Shown here in pieces: positions 11,213-30,908 of a DNA stretch of 55,995 nt. The DNA comes from Patescibacteria group bacterium (GTDB taxonomy: Bacteria; Patescibacteriota; Patescibacteriia; Buchananbacterales; SURF-54), in assembly GCA_018818885.1 (NCBI GenBank), contig JAHIRB010000035.1, positions 1 through 55,995 of the forward strand, read 5' to 3'. Position numbers and translations under genes: made by a program. Under the pieces are notes generated by a model. The model worked only from the letters and a program-made list of their open reading frames with translations. It was not told the origin of the DNA and made no database searches. Every line of letters starts with the position of its first letter. Position 1 is the first letter of the stretch.

Positions 11213-11790
11213 ATAGAATAAACTTAATTACTAAATCTGTGATCTACAAAAAAAATTTAAAAGGCGAATTAATTAACTTACGCCCAGTTCAACTTTTGGA
11301 TGCTCCTAATTGGGTAAAATGGTTAAAAGATAAAGAAGTAACTCAATTTTTATCTGTTGGTCCGATAACGTTAGAGAAAGAGAAAAAATTGTTAAGAAAA
11401 ATGATTAAATCCAAAGATCAATATACCTTCGCCATTGAGACTAAAGAAGGTAAACATATTGGTGGCTGTGCCTTAAATAATATAGTAAAAGAAGCAAAGC
11501 ATGCTGAGTTTGGGATAATTATTGGTGATAAAGCTAGCTGGTCTAAAGGTTATGGCACTGACGCACTTGAATTACTACTAAACTTTGGCTTTAATAGATT
11601 AAAGTTAAAAAGAATTTATTTAAGGTGCATAGAATATAACAAGCGTGGAATCAGATGCTACGAAAAATGTGGTTTTGTTCACGAAGGAAAATTAAGAAAA
11701 CATATGTATAAAAAAGGTAAGCCGTGGGATGAAATTAGAATGTCAATATTAATTAATGAATATAATAAAAAATATGGAAAAAGAAAATAA
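11206..11790 (+). CDS. GNAT N-acetyltransferase (RimJ/RimL family); start ATG 11206 or GTG 11239
   Basis: LRPV...DA, WSKGYGTDAL, N.R.I.CYEKCGF.HEG.LR motifs. Confidence 0.88.
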   Translation: MTNRINLITKSVIYKKNLKGELINLRPVQLLDAPNWVKWLKDKEVTQFLSVGPITLEKEKKLLRKMIKSKDQYTFAIETKEGKHIGGCALNNIVKEAKHAEFGIIIGDKASWSKGYGTDALELLLNFGFNRLKLKRIYLRCIEYNKRGIRCYEKCGFVHEGKLRKHMYKKGKPWDEIRMSILINEYNKKYGKRK

Positions 11791-16548: not shown

Positions 16549-17469
16549 ATGAATAAAAAGTCAAATAAAAAAGTAATAGTCATTTTAGGTCCAACAGCAT
16601 CTGGTAAAACAAAACTGGCTGTTAAATTAGCCAGCAAGTTTAATGGTGAAATAATTTCCGCAGATTCACGGCAAGTTTATGTTGATATGGATATTGGAAC
16701 AGGAAAAGATTTAGCAGAATATATAGTCAAGGTACAAGGTACAAGGTACAAGGTACCATATCATTTAATTGATGTCGTTTCGCCTAAATCTCAGTTTACG
16801 GTAGGTGTGTATCAAAAATTAGCCAACATAGCTATCCAGGATGTCATAAAACGTCAAAAATTGCCCATTATATGCGGTGGAACTGCTTTTTATATTCAGT
16901 CAATAGTAGATGGTATTGTATTGCCTCCTAAGACTTCAAGTCAGTTACGTCAAAAATTGAATAAGCTGACATTGAAGCAGCTATTAGTTAAATTGAAAAA
17001 ACTTGACTCAGCATCATATCGTCAAATAGACAAAAAGAACAGAAGGCGAGTGCAGCGTGCAGTTGAGGTGTGCTTGTATACAAGTGAAAAATTTTCATCA
17101 TTTGGCCAAAAACAAAAAATAGACTATGAGTTTTTGATCTTAGGATTAACTTGGCCAAGAGAAGTTTTGAAAAAAAGAAGCACCAAGAGACTAAAAGTCA
17201 GGCTTGAAAAAGAAGGTATGATCAATGAGGTTAAAAGATTGCATAAACAAGGAGTCAGTTGGAAAAGAATGGATGAGTTTGGCTTGGAATATCGCTGGGT
17301 TTCTAGATATCTTCAAAAGAAAATCACATATGACGAAATGTTTGAAGGTTTGAATAATGATATTAATAATTTTGCTAAAAGGCAGATGACGTGGTTTAAA
17401 AAAGATAAGAGGATTAAGTGGGTGAAGAATTATAAATCAGCAAAAAAATTAGTAAAGGAATTTTTATAG
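16549..17469 (+). CDS. miaA: tRNA dimethylallyltransferase
   Basis: GPTASGKT, IISADSRQVY, GGTAFY, AKRQMTWF. Confidence 0.97.
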   Translation: MNKKSNKKVIVILGPTASGKTKLAVKLASKFNGEIISADSRQVYVDMDIGTGKDLAEYIVKVQGTRYKVPYHLIDVVSPKSQFTVGVYQKLANIAIQDVIKRQKLPIICGGTAFYIQSIVDGIVLPPKTSSQLRQKLNKLTLKQLLVKLKKLDSASYRQIDKKNRRRVQRAVEVCLYTSEKFSSFGQKQKIDYEFLILGLTWPREVLKKRSTKRLKVRLEKEGMINEVKRLHKQGVSWKRMDEFGLEYRWVSRYLQKKITYDEMFEGLNNDINNFAKRQMTWFKKDKRIKWVKNYKSAKKLVKEFL

Positions 17470-18276
17470 CGGGCTTTTAATTTTTTTAAGCCGAGGATTG
17501 GTTACCTGTGTATATATTTGAGTGGTTCTGATATTTTGATGGCCAAGCAATTCCTGTACGTAGCGCACGTCAACGCCGTTTTCCAACAGGTGAGTGGCAA
17601 AACTATGGCGCAAACTGTGAAAGGTCGCGTTTTTTTTGATGTTTGCTTTTTTTAACGAATTAGCAAACACTTTTTGTGCGGTTCTTTCTGTAAGTTTGCC
17701 CCCACGCTCACTTGAAAAGATATAGTCATTTTTATCTTTTCCAGCAATAAGATTTTGAAGGTCAATTTTTAATTTTTCAGGCATAATGGTAATTCTGTCC
17801 TTTTTTCCCTTAGCTTGCCTGATGTGAATTGTTAGCTCCAAAAGGTCAAGATCTTGTATCTTAAGATTGATAATTTCGCTTACCCTTAAGCCTGATCCAT
17901 AAGCTAAAGATAAAAGCAGTTTATGTTTGTTATTAGTTGTAACTTCAATAATTTTTTTAATTTCATTTCTTGATAAAACAACAGGCAAGAATTTATTTCT
18001 CTTAGCTATTCTTATCTGAATTGGGGTGAAGGATTTGGCGACGTCACGATAATAAAATTTAATCGCATTCAAATAAAGATTCCGCGTCTGGACCGAGATA
18101 GCCTTTTCTTCAGCATAAAGCAGGAAGTTTTTGATATTTTCCTCATCTAATTTTTCTAAGCCACTTTGCTTAAAGGTAAAATATTCTTTTAAGCCATAAA
18201 CATAGCTTTTTATGGTTTTTTGGCTAAAATTGCGTATTTTTAATTCACGCTTTACTTTCTCTAGTTCTTTTTGCAT
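17464..18276 (-). CDS. IntI-like tyrosine recombinase lacking the IntI-specific insertion
   Basis: N-terminal SAM-like domain (RNFSQKTIKSY); catalytic R (GLRVSE), K (KGKKDR), HSLRH, LGH, Y (TTQIY); C-terminal SPL; 3' end overlaps miaA by 6 nt. Confidence 0.93.
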   Translation of the reverse strand: MQKELEKVKRELKIRNFSQKTIKSYVYGLKEYFTFKQSGLEKLDEENIKNFLLYAEEKAISVQTRNLYLNAIKFYYRDVAKSFTPIQIRIAKRNKFLPVVLSRNEIKKIIEVTTNNKHKLLLSLAYGSGLRVSEIINLKIQDLDLLELTIHIRQAKGKKDRITIMPEKLKIDLQNLIAGKDKNDYIFSSERGGKLTERTAQKVFANSLKKANIKKNATFHSLRHSFATHLLENGVDVRYVQELLGHQNIRTTQIYTQVTNPRLKKIKSPL

Positions 18277-18350: not shown

Positions 18351-18373
18351 TATTACGGTTATTATACGAAAAC

Positions 18374-18402
18374 ACTTCGTATAATAACGAGTTATATGAA
18401 AT
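18374..18402 (+). other. attI-like primary recombination site
   Basis: ACTTCGTATAA-TAACGAG-TTATATGAAAT (11-7-11, arms 9/11 symmetric); GTTATATGA matches TCATATAAC at the end of cassette 1; crossover inferred at G18391|T. Confidence 0.8.
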
Positions 18403-18438
18403 AATTTATCAAAATTTTAGTTTTTAATATTTTGCATC

Positions 18439-19587
18439 ATGAAAATCAGAACAATAACAACTGGCGTGTCGCTTCAATCACCTGACATTGAAGATCAAAT
18501 TAGGCAAACTGCTGAATTCAATCAGAAAGCCAAAGAAGTATTTGAAAAAGCAGGTTATGAAGTACAAACAACCAGAATAGCCACTAATTGCTGGGAAGAA
18601 TATCTTGGTAGTCTTTCAGACGCAGAAATTGTAAGTGCGATTCAAAAAATAGAACAAATTTGCCAAAGCCTCGACGTGAGTTTTTTCAATATGGGCTACG
18701 CAAAAACGCCTGATAAAATAAAACTCATCCCTGAATTTAATAAAGTTACATCTCAAATTTCATGCTCCGCCAAAATCGGCGACAAGGACAGTGGAATAGA
18801 TTTTGAAAATACCAAAATAGCAGCTCAAGTTATCAAACGAATTGCAGAGGAAACCGAAAACGGTTACGGCAATTTTAGATTCTGCGCCTCCGCAAATTGT
18901 AAGCCAGGCATTCCGTTCTTTCCAACCGGCTTTCACGAGGGAGAAACCGCTTTCGGTATTGGCTTGGAGTGCGGAGACTTAGCCGTGAAGGCATTTTCAA
19001 AATCAAGCAATCTCATAGAAGCAGAGCAAAACCTAAAAGCAATATTTGAAGAAGAAACTAAGAAAGTCGCCGATTTGGCTCAACAGATTTCAAAAGACTT
19101 TGGCATTGGCTATAACGGTATTGATGCTTCACTAAATCCAGGACTTGAAGAGCATGAAAGTATTGCTTTTGCGTTTGAAAAACTCGGCTTTGGCAAATTT
19201 GGAAATCAAGGAACACTTACAATTTCTGCTTTGGTCACTCGTGTACTCAAAGGTTTGTCAGTTAAGATATGTGGCTATTCTGGTCTTATGCTCCCAGTAT
19301 GCGAAGACCTTGGACTTGCAACAAGAGCAAATGAAGCTACTTACGGCATTACTAACCTGCTTTTATATTCAGCAGTTTGTGGTGTTGGTTTAGACACAGT
19401 TCCAATTCCAGGCGACACGCCAGCAGAAAAGATTGAAGCGACACTTCTCGATATGGCGACTTTAGCAATTAAGTTAGATAAACCATTATCAGCTCGTTTA
19501 TTCCCAGTTCCAGGCAAAAAAGCAGGAGAAATGACAGATTTCAAGTCACCATATCTCGTAGACTGCAAAATATTAAAAATTGAATAA
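18439..19587 (+). CDS. cassette 1: DUF711-family protein
   Basis: MKIRTIT start, PGIPFFP, G.SGLMLPV.ED, SAVCGVGLDTVP.PG. Confidence 0.8.
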   Translation: MKIRTITTGVSLQSPDIEDQIRQTAEFNQKAKEVFEKAGYEVQTTRIATNCWEEYLGSLSDAEIVSAIQKIEQICQSLDVSFFNMGYAKTPDKIKLIPEFNKVTSQISCSAKIGDKDSGIDFENTKIAAQVIKRIAEETENGYGNFRFCASANCKPGIPFFPTGFHEGETAFGIGLECGDLAVKAFSKSSNLIEAEQNLKAIFEEETKKVADLAQQISKDFGIGYNGIDASLNPGLEEHESIAFAFEKLGFGKFGNQGTLTISALVTRVLKGLSVKICGYSGLMLPVCEDLGLATRANEATYGITNLLLYSAVCGVGLDTVPIPGDTPAEKIEATLLDMATLAIKLDKPLSARLFPVPGKKAGEMTDFKSPYLVDCKILKIE

Positions 19588-19608
19588 AAAATTTTGATAA
19601 ATTACATC

Positions 19609-20526
19609 ATATAACACGGCATAGCCGGTTCGCTCGCTAAATAAAATCATTTTTTTACCACTCATATATGAAAGACGTTATACAATTCATAAAACCGAGA
19701 ATCGTGAAGGTCACTTGCCCAGGTCTCGATTCAAAAGGAACAGGGTTTCTAATATCAGAGGATGGTCACATAGCGACAAATTTCCACGTTATTGGGCAAG
19801 TTGACCAAAACGGACGCGTCAATTATGCAAAACAAATTATTGTCTCAAATTCTATTATTGAAGATGTAGAAGCCAATATTGTTCACAATGTTAAGGATAC
19901 CGCGTCCGTTTTGCACGATTACTCTATAATTAAAATCGACAAAAATGGCCTAGATTATTTTGAGTTAGGTGAAGGAGCAGATGTAGAAGAGGGAGATGAA
20001 GTTTACTTTGGTGGATTCCCAATAACTCAAAATAATCTCACCTCTCATAAAGGGCATGTATCTTCATTACGTGAAGCACCAACGCGTTTTGGTACTGATC
20101 TTCAAAAAGTTATTGATATTGACGGTACCGTTGTTGGCGGTAATTCAGGTGGCCCTTTATTATTCAAAAAGGACGGCAAACACTTAGTCGTTGGAATCAT
20201 TAGTCAACAAGTAGCATACTTATCAGAGGCCTTTCAACATCTAGAGCAATTTCTAAAAGTACAGATGACAAATCCAAATTCAGGAGGTGTTTTTATTGGT
20301 GGGGTTAATCCAAATGCCGCCCTTTTTGAAACTATCAAAACGCTTAAAACTAACTTATCTACCGGTATCGGAACGGCCATTTTTGTCGATTATATGAAGA
20401 CGGAATTTGAGGAAATAAAAAAATGATTTTATTTTTAACGCTCGCTCACCCAAATTTGGCAGTGGTGGGTCGCGTTTGCTCCCAATTTTACCACTGCCAA
20501 ACTTCGGCTATGCCGAAACGTTGTGC
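19609..20526 (+). other. attC-like site 1 (918 bp, carries a gene)
   Basis: ATATAAC-A-CGGCATAGCCG ... CGGCTATGCCG-AAAC-GTTGTGC. Confidence 0.85.
19668..20426 (+). CDS. trypsin-like serine protease inside attC1
   Basis: GTGF, TNFHV (His), DYS (Asp), GGNSGGP (Ser). Confidence 0.9.
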   Translation: MKDVIQFIKPRIVKVTCPGLDSKGTGFLISEDGHIATNFHVIGQVDQNGRVNYAKQIIVSNSIIEDVEANIVHNVKDTASVLHDYSIIKIDKNGLDYFELGEGADVEEGDEVYFGGFPITQNNLTSHKGHVSSLREAPTRFGTDLQKVIDIDGTVVGGNSGGPLLFKKDGKHLVVGIISQQVAYLSEAFQHLEQFLKVQMTNPNSGGVFIGGVNPNAALFETIKTLKTNLSTGIGTAIFVDYMKTEFEEIKK

Positions 20527-20558
20527 GAAATTCGCCAGCAATTTAACTAATAAAACAG

Positions 20559-21068
20559 ATGTCGGAAATTTTTGAAATTAAAGAAAGCGGCAGTTTGGGC
20601 CGAGGATTATTCGCCACAAAGCTAATAAAAAAAGGCGAGAAAATTTTAGAATTCACGGGTCCAATTATCTCTATCAAGGAGGCACTGCAAAAACCACCAG
20701 AAAAATTATCATGCCCTTTGCAAATCGGGCCGACCGAATATATAGACATACAAGAACCTGGCGTTTTAGCTAATCATTCTTGCTCGCCAAATGCTGGCGT
20801 AAAAAATGATCATTACCTTGTGGCTATCCAAGACATCTTACCTGGCAATGAAATTTTTTATGATTATTCAACGACAATGGATGAAGATAATTGGACCCTA
20901 GAATGTAAATGCGGAAGCCCAAACTGCCGCCACATCATAGGAGATTTCCGACATCTTCCGATCGAAGTTCAAAAAAAATATTTAGAATTAAATATAGTCC
21001 AGTCCTTTATTGCGAAAAAATTGCTGGCGAACATCGCACAACACGGCATATCCGGCTCAGAAAATTGA
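20559..21068 (+). CDS. cassette 2: SET-domain protein with post-SET motif
   Basis: GRGLFA, ANHSCSPN, EIFYDY, CKCGSPNCR. Confidence 0.92.
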   Translation: MSEIFEIKESGSLGRGLFATKLIKKGEKILEFTGPIISIKEALQKPPEKLSCPLQIGPTEYIDIQEPGVLANHSCSPNAGVKNDHYLVAIQDILPGNEIFYDYSTTMDEDNWTLECKCGSPNCRHIIGDFRHLPIEVQKKYLELNIVQSFIAKKLLANIAQHGISGSEN

Positions 21069-21164
21069 CACAATTAAATTTAAAAGGGGTGTCAATTTTC
21101 TTCGACCCAAATTTTTGTTCCGCTACGCTACACAAAACCTTCGGATAATGCCGATACGTTATAC
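21036..21164 (+). other. attC-like site 2
   Basis: GCACAAC-A-CGGCATATCCG ... CGGATAATGCCG-ATAC-GTTATAC. Confidence 0.85.
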
Positions 21165-21229
21165 GACATTGCCCTTCGCCCGCCTAGAATGTAAACTTTT
21201 ATATATTTAGCAAATCTTTTCAAATTATT

Positions 21230-22081
21230 ATGATTAAAACCAAAGTCCTAAAGAAGATAAGCCAACAACAACTGGATAAAAAACTAAAGCTCAATATAGA
21301 GAATAAATATGTTGAGGGAGAACAATGGTTCAAAAATCCAGAATTATGGTATGAATTAACAGCTTTTTCAAATCCTTACATAACTGTTTACTCTGAACTT
21401 GTTCTGTTAATTCAAAATCTGAATAAAATTTCTGGATTTTTATCTGACAAAGCTTTAGTTTTTTATGGTCTTGGCACAGGAGATACAGAAATTATTTTAG
21501 TCAATTCTATACTTCAAAAAGAAAAAGTTGTTGATGTTGTTGGCTTAGAAATACAAGCACAATTTATCGATGGATTTATTCAATCCCTTCAAAATATCGC
21601 CCTTGAAAATGATGAATATGAAATAAACTTTTTGGGTATTCATGGATTATTTCAAGATACAAAAAAAGAATATTTGAAAATTAACAATAAAAAACAAGCT
21701 CACATAATTTTAGGAAATACTATAGGTAATTTTAAAGAAGAAGAAATTTTTCAAATCTTCAATAACTTGATGAACAAGGGCGATATTTTACTCGCAGGAT
21801 TTCAAACAGATGAAAACATGAATAAAGTTTTCAAGCAATATTCAGAGAATAAAATGTTTAACAATTTCATTAGAAAAACAATCCCAAATTGCGATGAACT
21901 AAAATGGAAGATCAATCAAGAAGAATCGCAAATTGAAGCATGGAGTGGTGACGTGCTTGTTTTTCATTCAAAAAAGAAAAATCCTGCGAGTATGATAAAT
22001 TGTGTCAAGGACTTTGGTTTTAAAAAGTTGTATAGTACAAACGATACTAATTCTTGTATTCAGATATTTGAAAAGATTTGA
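21230..22081 (+). CDS. cassette 3: SAM-dependent methyltransferase, EgtD-like
   Basis: YGLGTGD motif I; LGNTIGNF; GD.LL.GF. Confidence 0.7.
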   Translation: MIKTKVLKKISQQQLDKKLKLNIENKYVEGEQWFKNPELWYELTAFSNPYITVYSELVLLIQNLNKISGFLSDKALVFYGLGTGDTEIILVNSILQKEKVVDVVGLEIQAQFIDGFIQSLQNIALENDEYEINFLGIHGLFQDTKKEYLKINNKKQAHIILGNTIGNFKEEEIFQIFNNLMNKGDILLAGFQTDENMNKVFKQYSENKMFNNFIRKTIPNCDELKWKINQEESQIEAWSGDVLVFHSKKKNPASMINCVKDFGFKKLYSTNDTNSCIQIFEKI

Positions 22082-22144
22082 ACGGCGGGCTACGGGCAAC
22101 GCTTCGGGGACGCTGCGCTTTCGTCGCTATCGCTCCTCACCCTC

Positions 22145-22240
22145 GTATAACAAGGATTATGAGGAAAATGGCTCAGCTCGCCATTTTCCCAAATTTGCTC
22201 CACTGCGTTCCGCAAACTTCTCATAATCCTGACGTTATCG
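22145..22240 (+). other. attC-like site 3 (shortest, 96 bp)
   Basis: GTATAAC-A-AGGATTATGAG ... CTCATAATCCT-GAC-GTTATCG. Confidence 0.88.
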
Positions 22241-22259
22241 GAAATAATTTTAGGCTCTT

Positions 22260-22694
22260 ATGAACGAAGAACAATCAAAAAAAATTATGAGGCTTGCTAT
22301 TGAGGAGGCAAAGAAATCCTCAGAACCACTGAAGTGTGGTGTTGTCATTGTTAAGAATGAAGAGGTGATTGCGAAAACATACAACTCTCAGCGAGAATCA
22401 AAAAATTCTTCAGCCCATGCTGAAATAAAAGCTTTAGGAGTGGCTGGACAGATAGTGGACAATAAAAATCTTGATGGTTGCGACATTTTTTGTACTTGTG
22501 AACCGTGTATTATGTGTGTTTCCGCAATCACTTTTGCAAAAATTAGGCGTCTTTATTATGGGATTTCTTTGTCTGACGTTTCACCGAAAGATAAACGAAT
22601 AGATATCAGTATTGATGAATTTTTCCAAAAATCGCCTCATAAATTCGAAGTGATAAAGAATTTTTTAGAAGAAGAATGCAAGGTACTAATTTGA
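22260..22694 (+). CDS. cassette 4: zinc-dependent nucleoside deaminase
   Basis: HAE and PCIMC zinc motifs. Confidence 0.92.
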   Translation: MNEEQSKKIMRLAIEEAKKSSEPLKCGVVIVKNEEVIAKTYNSQRESKNSSAHAEIKALGVAGQIVDNKNLDGCDIFCTCEPCIMCVSAITFAKIRRLYYGISLSDVSPKDKRIDISIDEFFQKSPHKFEVIKNFLEEECKVLI

Positions 22695-22711
22695 TCGCCT
22701 AAAATTACATC

Positions 22712-22851
22712 CGATAACAGCGTGTATGAGGTTCAAAAAAAGTGCGTTAATAATACCTAAAGGCTGCACTTTTTCTTTCACCCAAATTTCGCCTCCTATA
22801 TAATTAAAATAAGGAAGTCGGCGAAACTTCTCATACACGCAAACGTTAGGC
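22712..22851 (+). other. attC-like site 4
   Basis: CGATAAC-A-GCGTGTATGAG ... CTCATACACGC-AAAC-GTTAGGC. Confidence 0.9.
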
Positions 22852-22879
22852 GAAATAAGATTTAAACAAAAATTATTTT

Positions 22880-23149
22880 ATGGCAACAAAACCTTGGACA
22901 AGAAATCAAAAAATTGCTGTATGGGGGGTTATAGCCGTAATCATTATGGGTGTACTCGGATGGTTTATTAAAATAGATTTAGAAATATCTTATATACAAA
23001 GTCAAATTGAACAAATTCAGATAGATAAAGCGAACATAAAATCATTAGTTGTTGATGAATTTTTAAAAACCTGCCCACCAGGAACAACTACTTCGACTAT
23101 TGAATTTGTCGATGAAGGAATTAAATTTGGATGTATAATCCCAGAATAA
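22880..23149 (+). CDS. cassette 5: single-TM hypothetical protein
   Basis: 89-aa ORF filling the cassette. Confidence 0.75.
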   Translation: MATKPWTRNQKIAVWGVIAVIIMGVLGWFIKIDLEISYIQSQIEQIQIDKANIKSLVVDEFLKTCPPGTTTSTIEFVDEGIKFGCIIPE

Positions 23150-23190
23150 TTTTTGTTTAAATCTTACTCTCCGCTCCGCCCTATCGGGTC

Positions 23191-23733
23191 GCCTAACACG
23201 GGCTAGCCGGTTCGCAGTATGCACTTTGAAACAAACATTTTTAGGAAGCTGCCCAAATCAACCAAAGGAGGCCTACTATGATTTTGGGATTAACAAAAGA
23301 AGATTTAGAGAAACCAACAATTACAGAGGTAGAAGAAGTTCGCGTACATGACGGAAGGGGGGGTGCTGCCACAGTACGAGTCGGCGATCAAGTTGAAGTT
23401 TTCAAACCAGAAGAAAATAAATTGACTCTGGCCTATCTCGGCCCCGGGCCATACACTATTGAATGGACGGCGCAATGGAGATGTGGCCGAGATTTCCTTC
23501 AACTGACAACGCCGACAAAAGGTAAGGGCAAAGGCGTTAACGCTTCCAAATTTCAAATCGTCTCATAGTTTCATTATGGACGCACAAAAACGGGAAGGCA
23601 TACTTTCGCCTTCCCGCTTCCTAAAAATGTTTGTTTATTTATCACGCTCACCCAAATCCCACACCTATTTTAGTAAATTTCAAATAATAGCACAAAATAT
23701 GTGAGGGACTTCGGCTAGCCCGAAACGTTATGT
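23191..23733 (+). other. attC-like site 5 (543 bp, carries a gene)
   Basis: GCCTAAC-A-CGGGCTAGCCG ... CGGCTAGCCCG-AAAC-GTTATGT. Confidence 0.88.
23278..23568 (+). CDS. hypothetical protein inside attC5
   Basis: AAGGAGG SD; enclosed by a perfect 21-bp IR (23229-23249/23616-23636). Confidence 0.8.
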   Translation: MILGLTKEDLEKPTITEVEEVRVHDGRGGAATVRVGDQVEVFKPEENKLTLAYLGPGPYTIEWTAQWRCGRDFLQLTTPTKGKGKGVNASKFQIVS

Positions 23734-23770
23734 GAAATTTATTTTTGTTTTTATCTAATAAACACGTAAT

Positions 23771-24202
23771 ATGAATAAATCTTTTTCTCTTTTTCTCGAA
23801 CAACTAAAAAAACTTAATCTACCAAAAGGCAAATTCGCTATTTTCGGAAGTGGCCCCCTGGGTATAAGAAATATCAGAGACACCCATGATCTTGATCTTA
23901 TTGTAGATGAATCGCTTTTTGACGAGTATAAAAATATGCCGAGCTGGGAGTTTAAAAGTTTTGACAGAGATGATCGTCATGTTGAGATGATTGAAAATAG
24001 CGGAATTGAGTTCTACAAAACATGGGGGCCGGGCGATTGGGATACTCGCCAGTTAATTGATAATGCGGAAATTATTGATAATTTGCCTTTTGTAAAATTA
24101 GAGGAAGTAAAAAAGTGGAAGAAAATATCAGGAAGAGAAAAAGATTTAAAAGATGTCCAACTAATAAACGAGTATTTGGAAAAGTCACAAAAACAAAAAT
24201 AA
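23771..24202 (+). CDS. cassette 6: putative minimal nucleotidyltransferase-fold protein
   Basis: FGSGPL...DTHDLDL (GS plus DxD). Confidence 0.6.
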   Translation: MNKSFSLFLEQLKKLNLPKGKFAIFGSGPLGIRNIRDTHDLDLIVDESLFDEYKNMPSWEFKSFDRDDRHVEMIENSGIEFYKTWGPGDWDTRQLIDNAEIIDNLPFVKLEEVKKWKKISGREKDLKDVQLINEYLEKSQKQK

Positions 24203-24207
24203 ACATC

Positions 24208-24337
24208 ACATAACAAAGAGTATGCGGTTCAGGAATTTTTCATTTATAATTTAATAAGGAGTAAAAAATTCCTTCACCCAAATTTTTTGTTCCGCTATCG
24301 CTACACAAAAAACTTCGCATACTCTTAAACGTTATGT
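24208..24337 (+). other. attC-like site 6
   Basis: ACATAAC-A-AAGAGTATGCG ... CGCATACTCTT-AAAC-GTTATGT. Confidence 0.9.
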
Positions 24338-24435
24338 GAAATATTGACTAGATTATTCTGGCATAAAATGTTTTTGCCGATAAAAAAGTCAGTGCGATTT
24401 TAAAACTGATAATCAAATAATTCCGTCAATACATC
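24332..24435 (+). other. cassette 7 body: no ORF
   Basis: ~100 bp between TTATGTGA and TCACATAA, bounded by TATTGAC/GTCAATA. Confidence 0.8.
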
Positions 24436-24585
24436 ACATAACACTGTGTATCTGGTTCCGTAAAAGAGAAAAATTAAATAATTCTCTATTTTTAAAAAGC
24501 CCTTTTTCAATTTTTTTTGACAAAGAAAAAACCGCCTCAACCTTTGTGGTATATTGGCGGTAAGCAGTCGGTCTGCTCAGTCCTT

Positions 24586-24762
24586 TTACTTTGTGCGAAA
24601 GAGCGGGCAAATCAGGTCGTGAAATTCTTTCAGTGATTCGTTCAACATGGTATGCCAAACGAATATTCCAACCTCGCGCTCTTTCAAAAGAGCAACCAAC
24701 TTTTCCGCCCTTTCCTGCAACGCGTCATGCGTAAGTTCTGTTTTTTGCTCGTTTTCAGCCAT
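24586..24762 (-). CDS. 58-aa hypothetical protein inside attC7 (below the ORF-track cutoff)
   Basis: MAENEQKTELTHDALQERAEKLVALLKEREVGIFVWHTMLNESLKEFHDLICPLFRTK; GAAAGGAG SD, own promoter, terminator ACCGCC/GGCGGT. Confidence 0.75.
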   Translation of the reverse strand: MAENEQKTELTHDALQERAEKLVALLKEREVGIFVWHTMLNESLKEFHDLICPLFRTK

Positions 24763-24820
24763 TTCTACTTCTCCTTTCAGGTTAGTTGGTAATATTTAAT
24801 ACCAAATTTGGTATCGTTGC

Positions 24821-24849
24821 ATTGTAGCAGAAAACTGTCCCTCTGTCAA
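24821..24849 (-). promoter_or_regulatory. promoter of antisense module in attC7
   Basis: TTGACA-17-TACAAT with TGn extension. Confidence 0.85.
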
Positions 24850-25033
24850 GTCCAGCGACCAAAAAAAATTGAAAAAGGGCTTTAATAAGGTAAATTATTT
24901 AATTTTTCTTTTTTACTCCACCCAAATTTTTGCCTTTCCTTTCTTTTAGAATATAATAAGGAAGAAAGGCAAAAACTTCAGATACACAGAAACGTTAGGC
25001 GAAATTAATTTATTAACCTTTAATCAAAATCAT

Positions 25034-25249
25034 ATGGAAAAATTTGAAAGAGCTCCACAAGAGCCACAATCAACGGAAGAGGCAGTATCACGTTTTCTTG
25101 ACGGAGATAATAATGCCGCAGTGTCTTTTTTGCGAAATCACCGCGATGAAATCGGTGAATTCTGTTTACAAATCCGCGACACATACCAAAAAAATGACAC
25201 TGCGACTCCTTTTTTGGAATTGGCAAAGTTAATTGATTCGTTGCTATAA
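25034..25249 (+). CDS. cassette 8: hypothetical protein
   Basis: 71-aa ORF filling the cassette. Confidence 0.7.
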   Translation: MEKFERAPQEPQSTEEAVSRFLDGDNNAAVSFLRNHRDEIGEFCLQIRDTYQKNDTATPFLELAKLIDSLL

Positions 25250-25270
25250 ACGGTTAATAAATTAACTATC

Positions 25271-25411
25271 GCCTAACAGCGTGTATGAGGTTCAAGAAAA
25301 AGTGCGTTAATAATTTTCAGCGGTTGCACTTTTTCTTTCACCCAAATTTCGCCTCCTCTATAATGAAAATAAGGAAGTCGGCGAAACTTCTCATACACGC
25401 AAACGTTATGT
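25271..25411 (+). other. attC-like site 8 (near-copy of site 4)
   Basis: GCCTAAC-A-GCGTGTATGAG ... CTCATACACGC-AAAC-GTTATGT. Confidence 0.9.
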
Positions 25412-25523
25412 GAAATAGCCAGAAATTTTTTTATTATTTTTTAGATTTTTTTTGGCAATTTATTTCGGTCGAACATAGCTTGTGATATAATTTAATCAGC
25501 TTAATAATTTAACCAATAAAATT

Positions 25524-25802
25524 ATGAAAAACCCAGAAATGAGTCCTGAGCAACCAAAAAAGTGGGAAACTCTAACCACTGAGCAAATAATTGAGAGGAT
25601 AAAATCAAACTCTGAAGCACAAGAAAAAGCTTTTGGTAGTGTTCTTACTGAAGAACAGTTTAAAGAAAGATTTCCTCATAATTCAGCAAAAGTCGAAGAT
25701 ATTCAAAATATGATGCTAGCGTTAGGGTTAGAGCTTCCCACTCAAGAAGATGTAGAGCAAATGATGCAACAAGGCGAAGAAAATGATCAGGAAGAAAAAT
25801 AA
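25524..25802 (+). CDS. cassette 9: acidic hypothetical protein
   Basis: 92-aa ORF; TGnTATAAT upstream. Confidence 0.75.
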   Translation: MKNPEMSPEQPKKWETLTTEQIIERIKSNSEAQEKAFGSVLTEEQFKERFPHNSAKVEDIQNMMLALGLELPTQEDVEQMMQQGEENDQEEK

Positions 25803-25846
25803 ATTGCCAAAAAATACATTAAGGAAAAGAAATTTCTGTCTACATC

Positions 25847-26350
25847 ACATAACATGTTGTATCTGGCTACGCTAAATAATAATTTATTTTCTCTACTTAT
25901 ATGGGTATCAAAGTTGAATTTAACCCCGACCTCGCTTTAAGGAATATTTCCGAATTTAAAAACGGTAATCGTAAAATTGAAGAATGTATTCCTGAAAGCC
26001 TTGAGGAAGGCAAAACATATCCGTTTTTAAAATGCGATCAACGTAATTACTGGCTTTATGGTGCAATACCTTTAATCGAAACCAAAGGCAATGAGATTTT
26101 ATCACGTCCTAAGGCTAAAATTATTCTGCTGGAAGCCACGCACTTTGCTGTTGATAACGTAACGTATACTAAAGGCTTTTACAAAGTAATTGAGGTCTTT
26201 AAGGATGACGATATACATTTTGAATGTTTTGATCCGGTGGGAACGAGAAAATAAATTATTATTTAGCTCCGCCCAAATTTCTTCTTCTTTTTTATTATTA
26301 ATTTAATAATGAAGCGAAGAAGAAACTTCAGATACAACAAAACGTTATGT
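25847..26350 (+). other. attC-like site 9 (504 bp, carries a gene)
   Basis: ACATAAC-A-TGTTGTATCTG ... CAGATACAACA-AAAC-GTTATGT. Confidence 0.88.
25901..26254 (+). CDS. hypothetical protein inside attC9
   Basis: 117-aa ORF enclosed by a perfect 23-bp IR (25871-25893/26245-26267). Confidence 0.8.
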   Translation: MGIKVEFNPDLALRNISEFKNGNRKIEECIPESLEEGKTYPFLKCDQRNYWLYGAIPLIETKGNEILSRPKAKIILLEATHFAVDNVTYTKGFYKVIEVFKDDDIHFECFDPVGTRK

Positions 26351-26383
26351 GAAAAACAATAAATTCATAATAACATATAAATA

Positions 26384-27034
26384 ATGGGGTTCAATAAAAA
26401 GGAAGTTAATAAACTATTAGCATCTTGCCACAGAAGATGCTGCATTTGCCATAAATTCTGCGGGGTCAAAATGGAAACTGATCATATCGAACAAAAATTC
26501 ATCTCGCAGAATGATTCTATTGAAAATGCAATTCCAGTCTGTTTTGAATGTCATGCCGAAATCCATCTTTATAATGACAAACATCCACGTGGCAGAAAAT
26601 TTTCATCCGAAGAGTTGCATGAGCATAAGCGTCAATGGCTGGAAATATGCGAAAAAAATCCTGAGATGTTTATTCAACCACTCCAAAGAAGTGATGTAGG
26701 TCCTCTTCAGTCGTTGGCAGATGAACTAAAATTCAATGTAGCTATCAAACAGTATCAAGATTCTAATGTTGGATATTTCTGTCCTTTTGAGGTTAAGCAG
26801 TTTGACAGATCATTAAATGATGGCTATATCTCTATATTAAATGATAGTTTAGCAGATTCCTTAACTAACACTTATATTCAAATTAAATTGGCAAATACAG
26901 CACTCAATGCTATTACTTCGGCGCCTTGTGAAAGAGATCGAGGATTAGCCAAAAATAGACTCCAAGATGTATTAAGAATAATGGGTACAAAGATTGATGA
27001 AACTTATAAATTGCTTAAAAATCAATTAGAGTGA
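26384..27034 (+). CDS. cassette 10: HNH endonuclease domain protein
   Basis: CCIC...DHI...N.I.VCFECH..IH. Confidence 0.85.
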   Translation: MGFNKKEVNKLLASCHRRCCICHKFCGVKMETDHIEQKFISQNDSIENAIPVCFECHAEIHLYNDKHPRGRKFSSEELHEHKRQWLEICEKNPEMFIQPLQRSDVGPLQSLADELKFNVAIKQYQDSNVGYFCPFEVKQFDRSLNDGYISILNDSLADSLTNTYIQIKLANTALNAITSAPCERDRGLAKNRLQDVLRIMGTKIDETYKLLKNQLE

Positions 27035-27100
27035 ATTTATTGTTCTTCGCCTAACACGGGTTAGCCGGTTCACGCTGGCTAAATAAAATTATTCAATATT

Positions 27101-27676
27101 ATGAAAACTATTATAAAATTAATAAATCTAGCGGCCCTACTTGGGTCAGTTGCATGGCTATCCAAAGATACTAATTGGGAACCATTACTATTATTTCTTG
27201 CCTTATTAGCCGCATTCTTAGGGCAGGAAATCTTACCAACAATTAAAAAAGTGAACAAAGAAGACAAAAAGCTAGGAGAATTATTTCTTAAAGAATTCCC
27301 CTCAAACGGTAAAAGTTGCTTATTTTTAAAAGAACATGAGCTACACAATCCATTCCGCCAATCACAACTTGATGAAATTGAAAAATTCTTAAGTGAATGG
27401 GATAACACCGAACATGAGTTCTTAAATAAAAAATTAGAAAGAATAAAAAAAGAACTACTCTCTAAAATTAATAAATTTTTATCTTCGTTGTTTACTTTGG
27501 TAAGAGCCCATGATAGTGATGTTAATATATTAACAACCAAGCTAAGCGGGGCGTACAATAAAGAGGTAGAAGAAGAAAATGATTTAAAAATAGCTGGACT
27601 AAACAAAATGGCAACTGATATATATAAAAAACATCAAATACTAACAAAAAAGATAAAAAGAATCTTAAATTCTTAG
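27101..27676 (+). CDS. N-terminally membrane-anchored hypothetical protein inside attC10
   Basis: 191 aa, two N-terminal hydrophobic segments; 20-bp IR 27081-27100/27679-27698. Confidence 0.8.
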   Translation: MKTIIKLINLAALLGSVAWLSKDTNWEPLLLFLALLAAFLGQEILPTIKKVNKEDKKLGELFLKEFPSNGKSCLFLKEHELHNPFRQSQLDEIEKFLSEWDNTEHEFLNKKLERIKKELLSKINKFLSSLFTLVRAHDSDVNILTTKLSGAYNKEVEEENDLKIAGLNKMATDIYKKHQILTKKIKRILNS

Positions 27677-27729
27677 CTAATATTGAATAATTTTATTTTT
27701 AACGCTTGCTAATAAAATAATTTAAAAAT

Positions 27730-28023
27730 ATGGAAAATCAAATATTTAAAAAATTTACCTTATGGGATTCAGTAGTTTTACTGGTTTTAATACTTATTGC
27801 TATACCATCAATACTTGGAGTATTAGAAGCTGTAACTGGTCAAGACTATTATCAAATGACGGTTTATCTTTTTATATCGGCTATAATCTTGTTTGGAATT
27901 TTCAAATATTCAAAAAAGTTGGTGAGCAATATAAAAAATGCAGAAACTAAAAAAAGAGCAACTATAATATCAGCAGTATTGATAATCATTACCCTGCTAT
28001 TCTTTTTCAGACTATTTTTTTAA
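27730..28023 (+). CDS. 3-TM hypothetical protein inside attC10
   Basis: 97 aa; 18-bp IR 27711-27728/28017-28034. Confidence 0.75.
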   Translation: MENQIFKKFTLWDSVVLLVLILIAIPSILGVLEAVTGQDYYQMTVYLFISAIILFGIFKYSKKLVSNIKNAETKKRATIISAVLIIITLLFFFRLFF

Positions 28024-28217
28024 ATTATTTTATTTAACGCGCTCACCCAAATCCCGCCATGGGCGGGACTTCGGCTAACCCGAAACGTTAGGTAACATTT
28101 TATTCAAAATCTTTTAAATTTAATAATAGAGCCCTTTTGAAATTTTTTAAGAAAAAAGAAAGGGCTCCGCTCACTATTTTTAGTGGGGAGCCCTGATGAG
28201 CGGAGGACGCACGACAG

Positions 28218-28655
28218 TCACTTGAGGCGCGAGACTGCCTCGACGCCACTCATAGTTCTGCCAGTGGCGCAATCCATCACGAAGCTGCCGACTGACGACC
28301 CCGCCTTGATCATGGCGAGCCACTGGTCGTAGGTCGCCGTCGCGTACGGTCCGGCCGAGGCCTTGTTGTCGGCGAGCCAGCGTGCGAGCGCTTCGGGCGT
28401 TTCCATCACAGGCGAGATTGGTGTCCCTTCCGTGACGGACTCATACATCTGGTAGTGCGTGCGTTCCGACTCCGGCCACTGCGGCATGACGTCGCATCCG
28501 TAGTTCGGCGGGTCGTTGTTGAGCCAGCCGTCACGTAGTCCCTCCACAATCTCTTCCTCGTCGTACGGGAAGTGCTCGTGCATGGGGATGTGGTGGCCGT
28601 TCTCGTCCTTGGGGTGTTCCCAGTTTGCGGGAACTCTGCGAGCTTCTGTACTCAT
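28218..28655 (-). CDS. cassette 11: antisense, GC-rich hypothetical protein
   Basis: 145 aa; GAGGAGG SD; 42/60 and 38/60 G+C in two lines counted; GGGCTCC/GGAGCCC terminator. Confidence 0.85.
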   Translation of the reverse strand: MSTEARRVPANWEHPKDENGHHIPMHEHFPYDEEEIVEGLRDGWLNNDPPNYGCDVMPQWPESERTHYQMYESVTEGTPISPVMETPEALARWLADNKASAGPYATATYDQWLAMIKAGSSVGSFVMDCATGRTMSGVEAVSRLK

Positions 28656-28717
28656 GGCTTTGTCCTCCTCTTTGGTTGTTTTATGTGCAATTTAACGCCA
28701 AAATTAGCGTTCATATT

Positions 28718-28746
28718 AGTATAGCATAAAACTGATAACCTGTCAA
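28718..28746 (-). promoter_or_regulatory. promoter of antisense module in cassette 11
   Basis: TTGACA-17-TATACT with TGn extension. Confidence 0.85.
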
Positions 28747-28807
28747 GCTCGCGACCAAAAAAATTTCAAAAAGGCTCTAATAATAAGGTATTTTTGAATA
28801 AAACATC

Positions 28808-29253
28808 ACCTAACACCTGCTATCTGACTCCGCCTTTCGATAAATAATTTTTAACCACTTAATATGGAAACTTTAGAAAACTTTATAGAAAAACTTGACG
28901 AAAAAACTGAGATTGAAATAGCAAACTTTTTAAATGCAAGCCAAGATTCAAAAAGAGATTCAATAAAAGCTATTTTAGATTCTAGAATTATAAAAAATTT
29001 ACAGCAACTAACTAAAACAATCGAAGAAAATAACATAAAAACAGAAAACTATAATACTACACTAACTAAACTTACAAAATGGATTTTTATATTTACAGTT
29101 GTGATGACTATTGCAACAATAATCAGTTTATTCAAAGGTTAAAAATTATTTATCGGGCGTCGCGCAAATTGCTCATTCGCTTACGTGATGACCTCCAGTT
29201 AATTATATCACGACGCGAATTTCGCAACTTCAGATAGCAGGGTAACGTTATGT
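28808..29253 (+). other. attC-like site 11 (446 bp, carries a gene)
   Basis: ACCTAAC-A-CCTGCTATCTG ... CAGATAGCAGG-GTAAC-GTTATGT. Confidence 0.82.
28864..29142 (+). CDS. coiled-coil protein with C-terminal TM, inside attC11
   Basis: 92 aa; perfect 19-bp IR 28838-28856/29137-29155. Confidence 0.78.
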   Translation: METLENFIEKLDEKTEIEIANFLNASQDSKRDSIKAILDSRIIKNLQQLTKTIEENNIKTENYNTTLTKLTKWIFIFTVVMTIATIISLFKG

Positions 29254-29307
29254 GATGTTTGGCTTTTACTTAGTACAATTAATAATTTATAATTTAATAA
29301 AACCATT

Positions 29308-29469
29308 ATGAACAAAACAACAAAAATCACATTACTTATTATTGCTGGTTTATTAGTGTTTAACGGATTAATCAATATTTCCGACAATGGAGGAGTTTTA
29401 GCCTATGACATTGCTTCCATTTTATCTGGAATTGGATTTATTGTTGTTGCTCTATCTAAGAAAGCATAA
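29308..29469 (+). CDS. cassette 12: 53-aa 2-TM protein (below the ORF-track cutoff)
   Basis: MNKTTKITLLIIAGLLVFNGLINISDNGGVLAYDIASILSGIGFIVVALSKKA; fills the cassette. Confidence 0.75.
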   Translation: MNKTTKITLLIIAGLLVFNGLINISDNGGVLAYDIASILSGIGFIVVALSKKA

Positions 29470-29481
29470 AAGCCGAACATC

Positions 29482-29678
29482 ACATAACAGCGTGTATCTG
29501 GTTACGGAAAATTGGCGTTAATTAAATCCTTAAGGAATGCCAATTTTCCTCCGCCCAAATTTTCATCCCTTTACAAGATGAGGATTTGGGTGGGGTTCTG
29601 TTAAAAAGTGTCGTCTGATAATCAAAATTTAACCTATTTAATCGGGATGAAAACTTCAGATACACGCGAACGTTATAT
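29482..29678 (+). other. attC-like site 12
   Basis: ACATAAC-A-GCGTGTATCTG ... CAGATACACGC-GAAC-GTTATAT. Confidence 0.88.
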
Positions 29679-29698
29679 GAAATAATAATTTTATTTTT

Positions 29699-30169
29699 AT
29701 GTCAGATAAAATAAACAAATGCCTAGATGATTTAAGATATGCTTATAAATGTAACGTGCCTTTGGGATAAGTACTCGAATCATATAGTTTTTACGCTGAT
29801 CCTAAATATGTCACAATAGAAACTTACAAAAATTTTTGCGTGTTTGTTTATAAAACGGATATTGATAACGAGGGAATTTTAAAAAAAGCTAAAAAATATC
29901 CCGATTACGAAACTTATATAAGTGACAAAAGTAGTTTTGCAAAATTTTTTATTGAACGCGGTCCAAGATTAGATACGCCCAAAAAGAAACGAATTAAAAA
30001 ATATACTACCTATTCAGCGCATGGACATTTCCAAACCAATAATCCTATTTCTGCTTTTTTAAACTTCATAGCGATGTTGCCCGCTTATATATTAATGATG
30101 ACTATCGCCGGAATCGCAAAGATTTTTGTAAGTTTCTTTGACCTGTTCAAATCTAACAAAGAAAAATAA
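29699..30169 (+). pseudogene. cassette 13 gene with in-frame TAA at codon 24
   Basis: ATG 29699 is in frame with ORF 29840; single TAA at 29768-29770, frame otherwise open. Confidence 0.65.
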
Positions 30170-30251
30170 AATTATTACATCGTATAACACGGCGTATACG
30201 ACATTTGTTTATCCACTAAAACCCGGGGGAGTCGTTCGCGAACGGCTTCTC

Positions 30252-30300
30252 TTGACAAAAATAATCAGGCTGATATAATTGTAATACAATGTATTACAAT
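30252..30300 (+). promoter_or_regulatory. TA promoter and operator
   Basis: TTGACA-16-TGnTATAAT followed by palindrome ATTGTAATACA-A-TGTATTACAAT (30278-30300). Confidence 0.85.
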
Positions 30301-30312
30301 TAATCTATTTCT

Positions 30313-30528
30313 ATGAGACAAGTAATTAACATCTCCTTACCTAAACAAACAGCCCATGAAGTCAAATCTGCCGTTAAAAGAGGCAATTATCTCAGCGTCA
30401 GTGAGTTTTTTCGTGATTTATTAAGAGATTGGCAGGCAGGTAATCTTCTTAATGAATTAAACCAAAGTAGAAAAGAAATTAAAGCGGGCAAGGGCAAAAC
30501 CTTAAAATCCTTAAAGGATTTAAGGTAA
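30313..30528 (+). CDS. ribbon-helix-helix antitoxin (ParD/CopG-like)
   Basis: VINISLP...G.Y.SVSEFFRDLLR; upstream of RelE-like toxin. Confidence 0.85.
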   Translation: MRQVINISLPKQTAHEVKSAVKRGNYLSVSEFFRDLLRDWQAGNLLNELNQSRKEIKAGKGKTLKSLKDLR

Positions 30529-30534
30529 TTTTTT

Positions 30535-30792
30535 ATGGAAATTATTTATTCCTCAAAGTTTGCCCGTGAATATAAGAAACTGCCAAAAAAAGTAAAGGCA
30601 ACGGCGGAAGAGCACGAAACAATATTCAGACAGAACCCCCGAGATCCAAGATTAAACACGCACAAACTTCATGGCAGACTTAAAGAATTCTGGTCTTTTT
30701 CAATCGGGAACAAATACCGAATTATTTTTGAATTTGGCAATGACACTACAATTTGCTTGCATTTAGTCGGCAATCATGATATTTACCAATAA
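30535..30792 (+). CDS. RelE-superfamily mRNA interferase toxin (YafQ/YoeB-like)
   Basis: YSSKFAREYKKL, HKLHGRLKEFWSFSI, YRIIF, VGNHDIY. Confidence 0.9.
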   Translation: MEIIYSSKFAREYKKLPKKVKATAEEHETIFRQNPRDPRLNTHKLHGRLKEFWSFSIGNKYRIIFEFGNDTTICLHLVGNHDIYQ

Positions 30793-30908
30793 ACAAACGT
30801 CGCATACGCTGGAACGTTAGGCGAACTTTATATGATCCTGATGTTATGCAATTACATAATTTAACACGAAAAAAGAATTTTTAGAATGTAGATTATAATC
30901 TAGAAATT

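Follow-up and report, generated by a model that had tools for sequence, protein, structure and literature searches.

Why should each gene in a run of small genes be enclosed by an inverted repeat of its own, and how would such a repeat come about? This question is raised by contig JAHIRB010000035.1 (assembly GCA_018818885.1) of a Patescibacteria group bacterium of the Buchananbacterales, whose genome comprises 1.35 Mb in 51 contigs with 35% G+C; the window analyzed here is the whole stretch of 55,995 nucleotides. In it, a plus-strand array of genes behind a tyrosine recombinase gene extends to ~30830 and contains 13 sites. An initial annotation had proposed that every gene there is sealed by a private inverted repeat often holding its own stop codon, and that one end is copied from the other when a cassette is created (the 3' copy being native and the 5' copy new) or that selection folds the cargo out of the way. 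We find that the repeats are anchored to recombination sites and not to genes, and they probably form the paired arms of recombination sites that are long, branched, and of the hairpin type, in an integron-like cassette system found widely across this class of Patescibacteria.

Private repeats, their sites, and a length ruler

All six repeats that had been cited as examples exist as exact or near-exact reverse complements (19639-19656/20417-20434, 18 of 18 positions; 25871-25893/26245-26267, 23 of 23; 28838-28856/29137-29155, 19 of 19; 27711-27728/28017-28034, 18 of 18; 29247-29268/29467-29488, 21 of 22; 30190-30212/30789-30811, 20 of 23), and the sealing extends to all 13 inter-site modules and to all eight gene units that lie inside sites. 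The repeats are private, as had been suspected: in 10 of the 13 modules, the two ends pair with each other over 18-28 bp without gaps, and ends that do not belong together pair over a mean of 5.7 bp and a maximum of 14. In a chance control, we took the best gapless repeat score between positions -75 to +3 of the start and -30 to +75 of the stop for the 1231 non-array open reading frames (ORFs) of 80 aa or more in this genome. Their median score was 7 and their maximum 18, and only 17 of them (1.4%) scored 13 or more, compared with 13 of 16 array ORFs (81%) that scored 15-23. The three low-scoring array ORFs are one that reads through into a site, one on the minus strand, and the second member of a toxin-antitoxin pair. 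The high scorers outside the array include at least two units of the array's own kind, namely a cassette on contig C14 and a homologous gene-enclosing shell on contig C19.

From 5' to 3', a site consists of R'' (ACATCnnnTAAC), a 6-nt spacer, L'', side hairpin 1, the motif TCACCCAAATTT, hairpin 2, L', a 9-nt spacer, and R' (GTTAnnnGAAAT). Genes occupy two positions: the R slot, which runs from R' to the next R'', and the L slot, which is the loop of hairpin 1 and lies within the site. The window has 13 R-slot modules and 8 L-slot gene units in 7 sites, and its repeats are of three kinds: the R stem, in which ~14 private bp extend a conserved 12-nt arm that follows the G|TT crossover (26±2 bp overall); the side hairpin with a whole gene as its loop; and the L stem. 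The six examples of the initial annotation are true pairs, but they had been pooled as one phenomenon and in fact divide among these three structurally different kinds (hairpin-1 stems at 19639, 25871, 27711, and 28838, an R stem at 29247, and an L stem at 30190). In one common subfamily, the base of the hairpin-1 stem is semi-conserved (GCGAGCT-AAATAAAAT ... ATTTTATTT-AGCTCGC) and its top is private. A candidate second-level site around nested units, CGCTnGCT, was dropped, being the palindromic side-hairpin base GCGAGCT...AGCTCGC of relatives. Genes stand between L'' and L' in 7 of the 13 sites of the window (19616-20519, 23198-23726, 24443-24993, 25854-26343, 27056-28086, 28815-29246, and 30189-30815), with two gene units in series in site 10.

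The two halves of a site are unequal. Left halves have a dif-like 11-6-11 layout, and right halves have the 9-nt spacer and an L arm that is 2 nt longer; the L stems covary, and the spacers vary between sites and covary inside one site. The conserved 12-nt R arm includes a fixed 2-nt mismatch at positions 10-11 (GAAAT versus GATGT), and constant bulges of 3 nt in the spacer and 2 nt in the L arm are predicted in addition to this 2x2 mismatch. Across nearly all modules in all genomes, R' reads ...GAAAT and R'' reads ACATC..., giving a constant A.A/A.C mismatch (e.g., 23727-23738 versus 24203-24214). This mismatch is likely to mark polarity, much as unpaired features do in attC sites, where the folded bottom strand recombines and extrahelical bases set the polarity.

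The same site family was found by a half-site pattern search in 149 of 401 genomes of the class (37%), with ~15 hits in a reversed control. We drew on a sample of 41 loci, 626 kb from ~35 related genomes, in which 204 right and 153 left half-sites delimit 116 R-slot and 144 L-slot modules. As with the RYYYAAC/GTTRRRY bounds of the integron palindrome, AAC stands at the anchor in 153 of 153 left halves, and TTA or TTG directly follows the G in 201 of 204 right halves. Past the 12-nt arm, the ends of the 116 R-slot modules pair over a median of 12 bp, with an extension of at least 8 bp in 78 of them versus 4% of non-own pairs. The match rate by position is at least 93% at positions 12-20, ~80% at 23-24, 73% at 25, and 60% at 26, and from position 27 on it is ~33%, the background. 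This sharp profile indicates that the repeat is ruled from the G of GTT over 26±2 bp and not from the gene, and we rejected the repeat as a gene-anchored feature because the ruler is anchored at GTT and stop positions vary. In the 65 related modules whose repeat spans 20 bp or more, the repeat contains the stop codon 18 times and adjoins it 10 times; the stop lies upstream of the repeat in 35 (54%), and the ORF reads through the site in 2. The stop-holding repeat, which does hold for the compact window, is thus no general feature (the stop is in or beside the repeat in 43% of modules). Gene-holding L slots (at least 260 nt) make up 29 of the 144 in relatives, and at least 23 of these 29 have a sealing repeat whose outer ends fall exactly at GGTTC and TCACCCAAAT, which makes the gene the loop of hairpin 1.

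Recombinase, point of exchange, and a predicted fold

The recombinase gene (17464-18276, minus strand) is divergent from the array and encodes 270 aa that are IntI/XerA-like and lack the IntI-specific insertion. Its Pfam domains are Phage_integrase and Phage_int_SAM_4; it scores 225 bits against the NCBIfam model XerA_Arch ('XerA / integron integrase'), just over the cut-off of 220, and 223 bits against the integron integrase model TIGR02249, under the cut-off of 265. The closest PDB structure is that of Vibrio IntI4 (VchIntI4, 2a3v), to which it aligns in two blocks (residues 7-178 with 8-182 and 194-270 with 241-317); residues 183-240 of IntI4, the 58-residue IntI-specific insertion, correspond to ~15 residues. 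By this alignment and the TIGR02249 score, the additional domain of integron integrases (the I2 helix, between patches II and III) is lacking. The one-directional array with its divergent integrase, the recombinase on the minus strand and the 13 sites on the plus strand, is that of an integron. Two further Xer-like recombinases are encoded in the same genome.

The variable arm bases (positions 4-8) are identical inside a module in 72 of 116 cases and inside a site in only 10 of 144, which points to G|TT or its immediate neighborhood as the place of exchange, like that of integrons. An attI-like right half-site (aaacacttcgtataataacgaGTTATATGAAAT; 18366-18402, plus strand) is similar to the L'-R' halves, and cassette 1 begins at the G of its GTT, at 18391, where the 28-bp repeat of that cassette starts too. 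Together with the agreement of the arm bases, this start at the attI-side GTT suggests, as far as sequence can tell, a crossover within GTT like that of integrons.

We infer from these data how the repeats may fold in vivo, serve recombination, and be made. With exchange at or next to G|TT, the 5' end of each cassette would bear the R' half of the site that belongs to that cassette. The closing stem would loop each gene out of single-stranded DNA and zip the cassette ends together, bringing the two G|TT exchange points for its excision next to each other, where a recombinase related to IntI and XerA and without the hairpin-reading insertion of IntI could act on them. The private part would arise anew at each capture, the 3' arm being native where it overlaps the end of the ORF and the 5' leader a derived complement, and the pairing might then be kept by selection or by templated correction of one arm from the other. 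Given the abrupt end at 26 bp and the perfect matching, we lean toward a ruler or a template over stepwise selection.

In predicted single-stranded folds of 761 nt, either strand closes the R slot with its stem and forms the branched L hairpins (z ~-8), in minimum-energy and centroid structures alike. The cassette's own R'/R'' helix is predicted to stack on the L stem, and the 3' G of the site would then lie beside the TT of the cassette's own R', these being the two points exchanged for excision. Maintenance of the pairing can be followed in ten L-slot orthologues of a 117-aa gene (66-88% protein identity), in which 6 of 22 stem columns have two Watson-Crick pair types and 7 of 220 cells (3%) are unpaired. 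Compensated pairs also occur between the trypsin-like unit 1 of the window and its counterpart in L026, between the shell at 23229 and its relative on contig C19, and between R-stem subfamilies. These alignments are suggestive of pairing kept through compensated changes and do not amount to statistical proof. The counts rest on small true families only; a family-wide count by automatic clustering was discarded, the A+T-rich extensions having chained into a false family of 45. Of the proposal that selection folds the cargo away, a part survives, supported by the outward or inward continuation of the site stems, the fixed 26±2 bp, the predicted folds, and the compensated changes.

Several points weigh against a folded, hairpin-type site. 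Folding and excision are deduced from sequence and predicted folds, and within an array the extension pairs across the gene, not within the site, unlike the canonical attC hairpin model. Some shell families show only uncompensated single changes, and one R-stem family only single ones. The G.T mismatches in 50 modules number 12 on the top and 13 on the bottom strand, so that this lack of bias does not single out a folded strand. The dif-like 11-6-11 left half-sites fit a double-stranded Xer-type mechanism without folding, and the shell on contig C19, which lies outside any site, may mean that the repeat has a role independent of the recombination site.

The system resembles integrons in several respects. 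Integron cassettes are known to have at their 5' ends the far halves of their own sites, and the variable part of R' does not match R'' inside integron arrays (PMC5371416). The variable bases of R' go with the downstream cassette, so the cassette ends are complementary there as here (PMC5371416). Also alike are the divergent tyrosine recombinase beside a one-directional array of mostly promoterless single-gene cassettes, the imperfect-palindrome sites with ends ...AAC and GTT..., and the presence of a toxin-antitoxin cassette in the array. Unlike in integrons, the recombinase here has no IntI-specific insertion, the end complementarity is ~26 bp compared with only 7-12 bp in eight classical class 1 cassettes, the branched sites share a conserved TCACCCAAATTT motif, whole genes lie inside a fifth of them, and the arm is presumably Xer-like. 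Among the papers available to search, none dealt with attC sites or integrons of Patescibacteria or of the candidate phyla radiation. Relative to the descriptions found, the 14-bp private extension of fixed total length, the sealed genes inside sites, and the use of a recombinase that lacks the IntI insertion are new. Standard integron finders cap the length of attC and require the IntI domain, so they would miss such arrays and the genes nested in their sites. The recombinase lacks the domain thought necessary for reading folded attC sites, and the system thus bears on the evolution of integrons from Xer-type recombination.

Capture of genes and the origin of the private arms

How cassettes are created is a long-standing open question for integrons, and this system supplies material for it in the 117-aa gene at 25901-26254 (plus strand), the L-slot unit of site 9 (25871-26267). 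The repeat of this unit (25871-25893/26245-26267, 23 of 23) includes the last codons and TAA within 26245-26267, as had been described (the gene ends at 26254), and the 3' arm has native ...GAGAAAATAA as its inner 10 nt. The protein has no Pfam match and has more than 1100 homologues, of which the best 120 are 71-91% identical to it and almost constant in length. In a scan of species genomes, it was found in Patescibacteria (including Gracilibacteria) and DPANN archaea at 57-88% identity, and its gene often stands in operons after serine hydroxymethyltransferase or flavin mononucleotide reductase. The gene thus encodes a small, highly conserved protein and has become a cassette on several separate occasions. 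An exact-protein look-up returned one further contig, with the gene order of the window over the covered region, and no population variant.

We compared 143 distinct genomic contexts of this gene. No flanking repeat is present in 128 of them, operon-embedded copies included, and 15 have one, so donors that already hold both copies, which the initial annotation had named as counting against copying, are not what is found. Eleven of the 15 repeat-bearing contexts form one L-slot lineage, in which the inner 3' arm is the native ...(G)AGAAAATAA and the leader has TTATTTTCT(C). The sequence ...AGAAAATAA encodes Arg-Lys-stop and is conserved in non-cassette copies, which have no upstream complement. 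Other captures have entirely different private repeats, for example GTTAGATGAAAT+TAGCAACTCTCAC / GTGAGAGTTGCTA in an R-slot capture and, elsewhere, GAGAATTCGCCAC / GTGGCGAATTCTC. The repeat therefore arrives with the capture, each capture having one of its own, and wherever the repeat overlaps coding sequence it is the 5' arm that is derived. At a Staskawiczbacteria locus (L109), the bracket is of a different, direct-plus-palindromic type, in which the last codons of the 117-aa homologue and the palindrome ATCATCTTAACATATGTTAAGAT are repeated upstream of the start.

For this gene, then, the idea that one end is copied, with a native 3' and a new 5' copy, is supported; as a general rule it fails. 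The stop lies upstream of the repeat in the 54% of related modules counted above, the SET-domain and 143-aa ORFs read into site-derived sequence, and identical repeat-bearing leaders and trailers surround unrelated ORFs. For example, the window module at 25405-25853 and positions 11366-11837 of locus L017, a module from a different family of the class, have a ~120-nt leader with promoter and a ~55-nt trailer that are ~90% identical, and their ORFs are unrelated. An antisense promoter shell recurs in an L slot (24442-24994), in an R slot (28087-28814), and in L017 (10671-11366) around three unrelated ORFs. Such shells consist of the promoter, a ribosome-binding site (RBS), the repeat arms, and the last two codons with the stop, and are ~90% conserved between families, with the ORF swapped precisely. 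The shell at 23229-23636 has a homologue outside any site at 52986-53294 of contig C19 (region 52900-53330), which encloses an unrelated 102-aa ORF; this unit (AACAAATACTTTTAGGA ... TCCTAAAAGTATTTGTT) has its own RBS and a terminator-like hairpin, and relative to the 23229 shell two positions are changed in both arms.

The 117-aa gene provides a before-and-after series for cassette birth, with more than 120 repeat-less contexts and several captured forms, one of which has a stem built partly from its own last codons. The 14 unconserved, paired bp with their sharp limit at 26 bp offer a mutable feature for testing. It is conceivable, although we would not expect it, that the private stems are both address labels and marks of cassette making, a single-stranded three-way junction leading to the excision of exactly one cassette and templated copying making the complement when an ordinary chromosomal gene is taken up between the arms or into the loop of a site. 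If true, this would be the first directly traceable de novo route to integron-type cassettes, and the 117-aa gene would be its natural time series. In E. coli, quasi-palindrome correction by template switching turns an imperfect palindrome into a perfect one, one arm being copied from the other. By analogy, its outcome resembles a 5' complement of a native 3' coding end, although the known cases have short loops and the arms here are 100-1200 nt apart.

A different account would leave the repeat without function. A strand switch at a quasi-palindrome or fold-back synthesis could copy a fixed length of flank at cassette birth and leave a neutral scar that then decays. The sharp 26-bp limit with near-perfect matching up to it, the different private repeats of independent captures of the 117-aa gene, the complementarity of the 5' arm to native coding sequence, and the uncompensated single changes in some families would all fit such a scar. 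We nevertheless consider it unlikely, given that orthologues only 66-88% identical have compensated double changes in 6 of 22 stem columns with 3% unpaired cells, that further compensated pairs separate unit 1 from L026 and the 23229 shell from C19, and that shells with the same repeat hold unrelated ORFs, so that the repeat outlives its first cargo.

The hairpin-type site must also be weighed against double-stranded Xer/dif-type modules such as the pdif modules of Acinetobacter plasmids. Each half-site would then be a dif-like site, modules between R arms would alternate with modules between L arms, the repeat would be inward-facing arms traveling with the module, and nothing would fold. We take the R' sequence TTATGTGAAAT to be one base off the E. 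coli XerD arm. The left halves fit the 11-6-11 layout of 28-bp dif sites (an 11-bp XerC arm, a 6-bp spacer, and an 11-bp XerD arm), genes alternate between two slot kinds, and the recombinase is without the IntI insertion, all as this account would have it; the C and D modules of dif systems likewise alternate between inversely oriented sites (PMC13141974). The pdif modules, which use XerC/XerD, share with the array the two alternating slot kinds with inward-facing copies of one arm type, the arm-spacer-arm sites, and the frequency of toxin-antitoxin modules (PMC13141974). Unlike in pdif, the half-sites here are unequal, with spacers of 6 and 9 nt and fixed mismatches, a dedicated recombinase gene heads the array, and private pairing lengthens the arms, a feature that descriptions of dif modules do not mention. 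Nor do modules occur in either orientation as in pdif: the GAAAT/ACATC polarity of the arms is constant, and 88 of 92 related modules with an ORF have it on one strand, that of the array, indicating that the modules do not invert. This constant polarity and the unequal half-sites argue against a dif-module mechanism, as do the 9-nt spacer and 2-nt longer L arm of the right halves, which would form bulges if folded, the systematic difference between R' and R'' at two positions, and the spacers that vary between sites and covary within them. A dif-type account would also leave the 14 extra paired, unconserved bp without a reason, and we regard it as doubtful at best.

Pairing of leader and trailer in a polycistronic transcript, inviting RNase III cuts or protecting against exonucleases, is more improbable still. 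At ~26 bp, the stem would match the substrates of bacterial RNase III in size, and the C19 shell, with its RBS and terminator-like hairpin, lies outside any site. The stems that process 16S and 23S rRNA offer an analogy, as long-range 5'/3' stems of about two helical turns that loop out the gene product; they act in RNA, whereas the stems here are continuous with DNA recombination arms and have no wobble bias toward an RNA strand. G.U-compatible mismatches are not in excess on the sense strand (12 versus 13 in the 50 modules), and on that count we set the RNA-level candidate aside. The stems start exactly at the recombination arms and include them, the same stems surround minus-strand genes and an ORF-less module, and the fixed mismatch is A.A/A.C on the sense strand. 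Finally, the notion that the repeats are terminal inverted repeats of cargo elements inserting into sites, resembling miniature inverted-repeat transposable elements, can draw on repeat-bounded units at a constant place in the sites and one elsewhere in the genome (C19) and on short direct repeats such as CGCTCGCT beside some units, but it is barely credible, since private repeats, which differ between cassettes where recurrent identical ends would be the rule, would be unrecognizable to any transposase, no transposase gene is present, target-site duplications are not consistent, and the apparent direct repeats are the palindromic hairpin base GCGAGCT/AGCTCGC in relatives.

Modules of the array

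All features below are on the plus strand unless stated otherwise, and the figures after each repeat are matched positions. R-slot module 1 (18391-19615) holds a DUF711 gene (18439-19587) between repeat arms 18391-18418 and 19588-19615 (26/28); the gene is absent from 60 of 60 related genomes searched, which gave no near donor, and is therefore regarded as accessory. The L-slot unit of site 1 (19639-20434) holds a trypsin-like peptidase gene (19668-20426) as the loop of the side hairpin, its repeat (19639-19657/20416-20434, 19/19) taking in the last two codons and TGA, and L'' (19616-19631) pairs with L' (20500-20517) across the gene. Locus L026 has a homologous leader and stem with two compensated changes around a different gene; an exact-protein look-up of the trypsin-like protein returned no record. 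R-slot module 2 (20520-21042; repeat 20520-20544/21018-21042, 23/25) has a SET-domain gene (20559-21068). This ORF and that of locus L052 (15993-16517) extend across the repeat, R'', and L'' and on into hairpin 1, and the two proteins, which are 35% identical, have a common site-encoded C-terminal tail, A(Q/E)HGISGSE.

The repeat of R-slot module 3 (21158-22151), a methyltransferase (21230-22081), hugs the gene (21211-21225/22066-22080, 15/15) and is set off from the arms by G+C-rich spacers. Module 4 (22234-22718), a deaminase (22260-22694), has a repeat (22234-22255/22697-22718, 20/22) whose stem is found in minimum-energy and centroid folds of both strands. Module 5 (22845-23197) carries an 89-aa ORF and a repeat (22856-22877/23145-23166, 22/22) that a G+C-rich insert separates from R''. 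Such inserts between stop codon and R'' are recurrent (22082-22140 and 23167-23190 in the window; L022, L028, L033, L046, and L051 among relatives) and displace or replace the private repeat, as in ...ctcctcaccctc and, in relatives, ccccgacgactgaaaggaggagagcgcagcg. The L-slot unit of site 5 (23229-23636; repeat 23229-23249/23616-23636, 21/21) has a 96-aa ORF (23278-23568) with its own RBS and terminator-like hairpin.

In R-slot module 6 (23727-24214), the repeat (23727-23752/24189-24214, 24/26) takes in the last four codons and TAA of a 143-aa ORF, whose tail ...KQK is confined to a close clade, distant homologues stopping earlier. Module 7 (24331-24442; repeat 24331-24357/24416-24442, 22/27) is an ORF-less stretch of 112 bp. 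It is followed in site 7 by an antisense expression shell (24496-24883, minus strand) with promoter and RBS around a 58-aa ORF (24586-24762); the repeat (24496-24519/24860-24883, 24/24) belongs to a longer imperfect repeat of ~58 bp. A 71-aa ORF occupies module 8 (24994-25277), with the arm repeat plus 25005-25024/25246-25265 (18/20), and a 92-aa ORF with its own promoter TTGTGATATAAT occupies module 9 (25405-25853), with an arm repeat of 28 bp (24/28) plus 25430-25465/25797-25832.

R-slot module 10 (26344-27055) contains a 216-aa HNH-like ORF whose TGA lies within the repeat (26344-26367/27032-27055, 21/24). The two units in series in site 10 are at 27081-27698 (191-aa ORF, 27101-27676; repeat 27081-27101/27678-27698, 21/21) and at 27711-28034 (97-aa ORF, 27730-28023; repeat 27711-27731/28014-28034, 20/21, TAA within). 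Module 11 (28087-28814, minus strand) is an antisense shell with an arm repeat of 23 bp (20/23) plus 28120-28148/28758-28786 (26/29) around a 145-aa ORF (28218-28655). This ORF has a G+C content far above that of the genome and its own strong terminator, and by its composition looks like a recent import from a high-G+C donor. The L-slot unit of site 11 (28838-29155) has a 92-aa ORF (28864-29142) with TAA within the repeat (28838-28856/29137-29155, 19/19). Module 12 (29247-29488), with a 53-aa ORF, likewise has TAA within the repeat (29247-29268/29467-29488, 21/22), and module 13 (29672-30188; repeat 29672-29698/30162-30188, 24/27) has a 109-aa ORF.

The terminal site 13 (30190-30811) encloses an RHH-RelE-type toxin-antitoxin operon (30313-30528 and 30535-30792) in its L''/L' stem, which has a 10-nt extension (30192-30212/30789-30809 with the extension, 19/21). 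The operon was dropped as a donor test, the native stop overlapping the repeat by only 4 nt. Homologous operons in L052 (1248-1731) and L040 (10979-11481) lie outside any site; the homologues keep the promoter-operator TGTAATACAA..TATTACAATTAA, and in one genome a homologue stands directly behind the recombinase gene. A second array fragment of the same genome is found on contig C14 (2850-3624), where a 103-aa ORF, bounded by GTTTGCTGAAAT+TTTCTCGGGC and GCCCGAGAAA+ACATCAGCAAAC, is followed by a full site.

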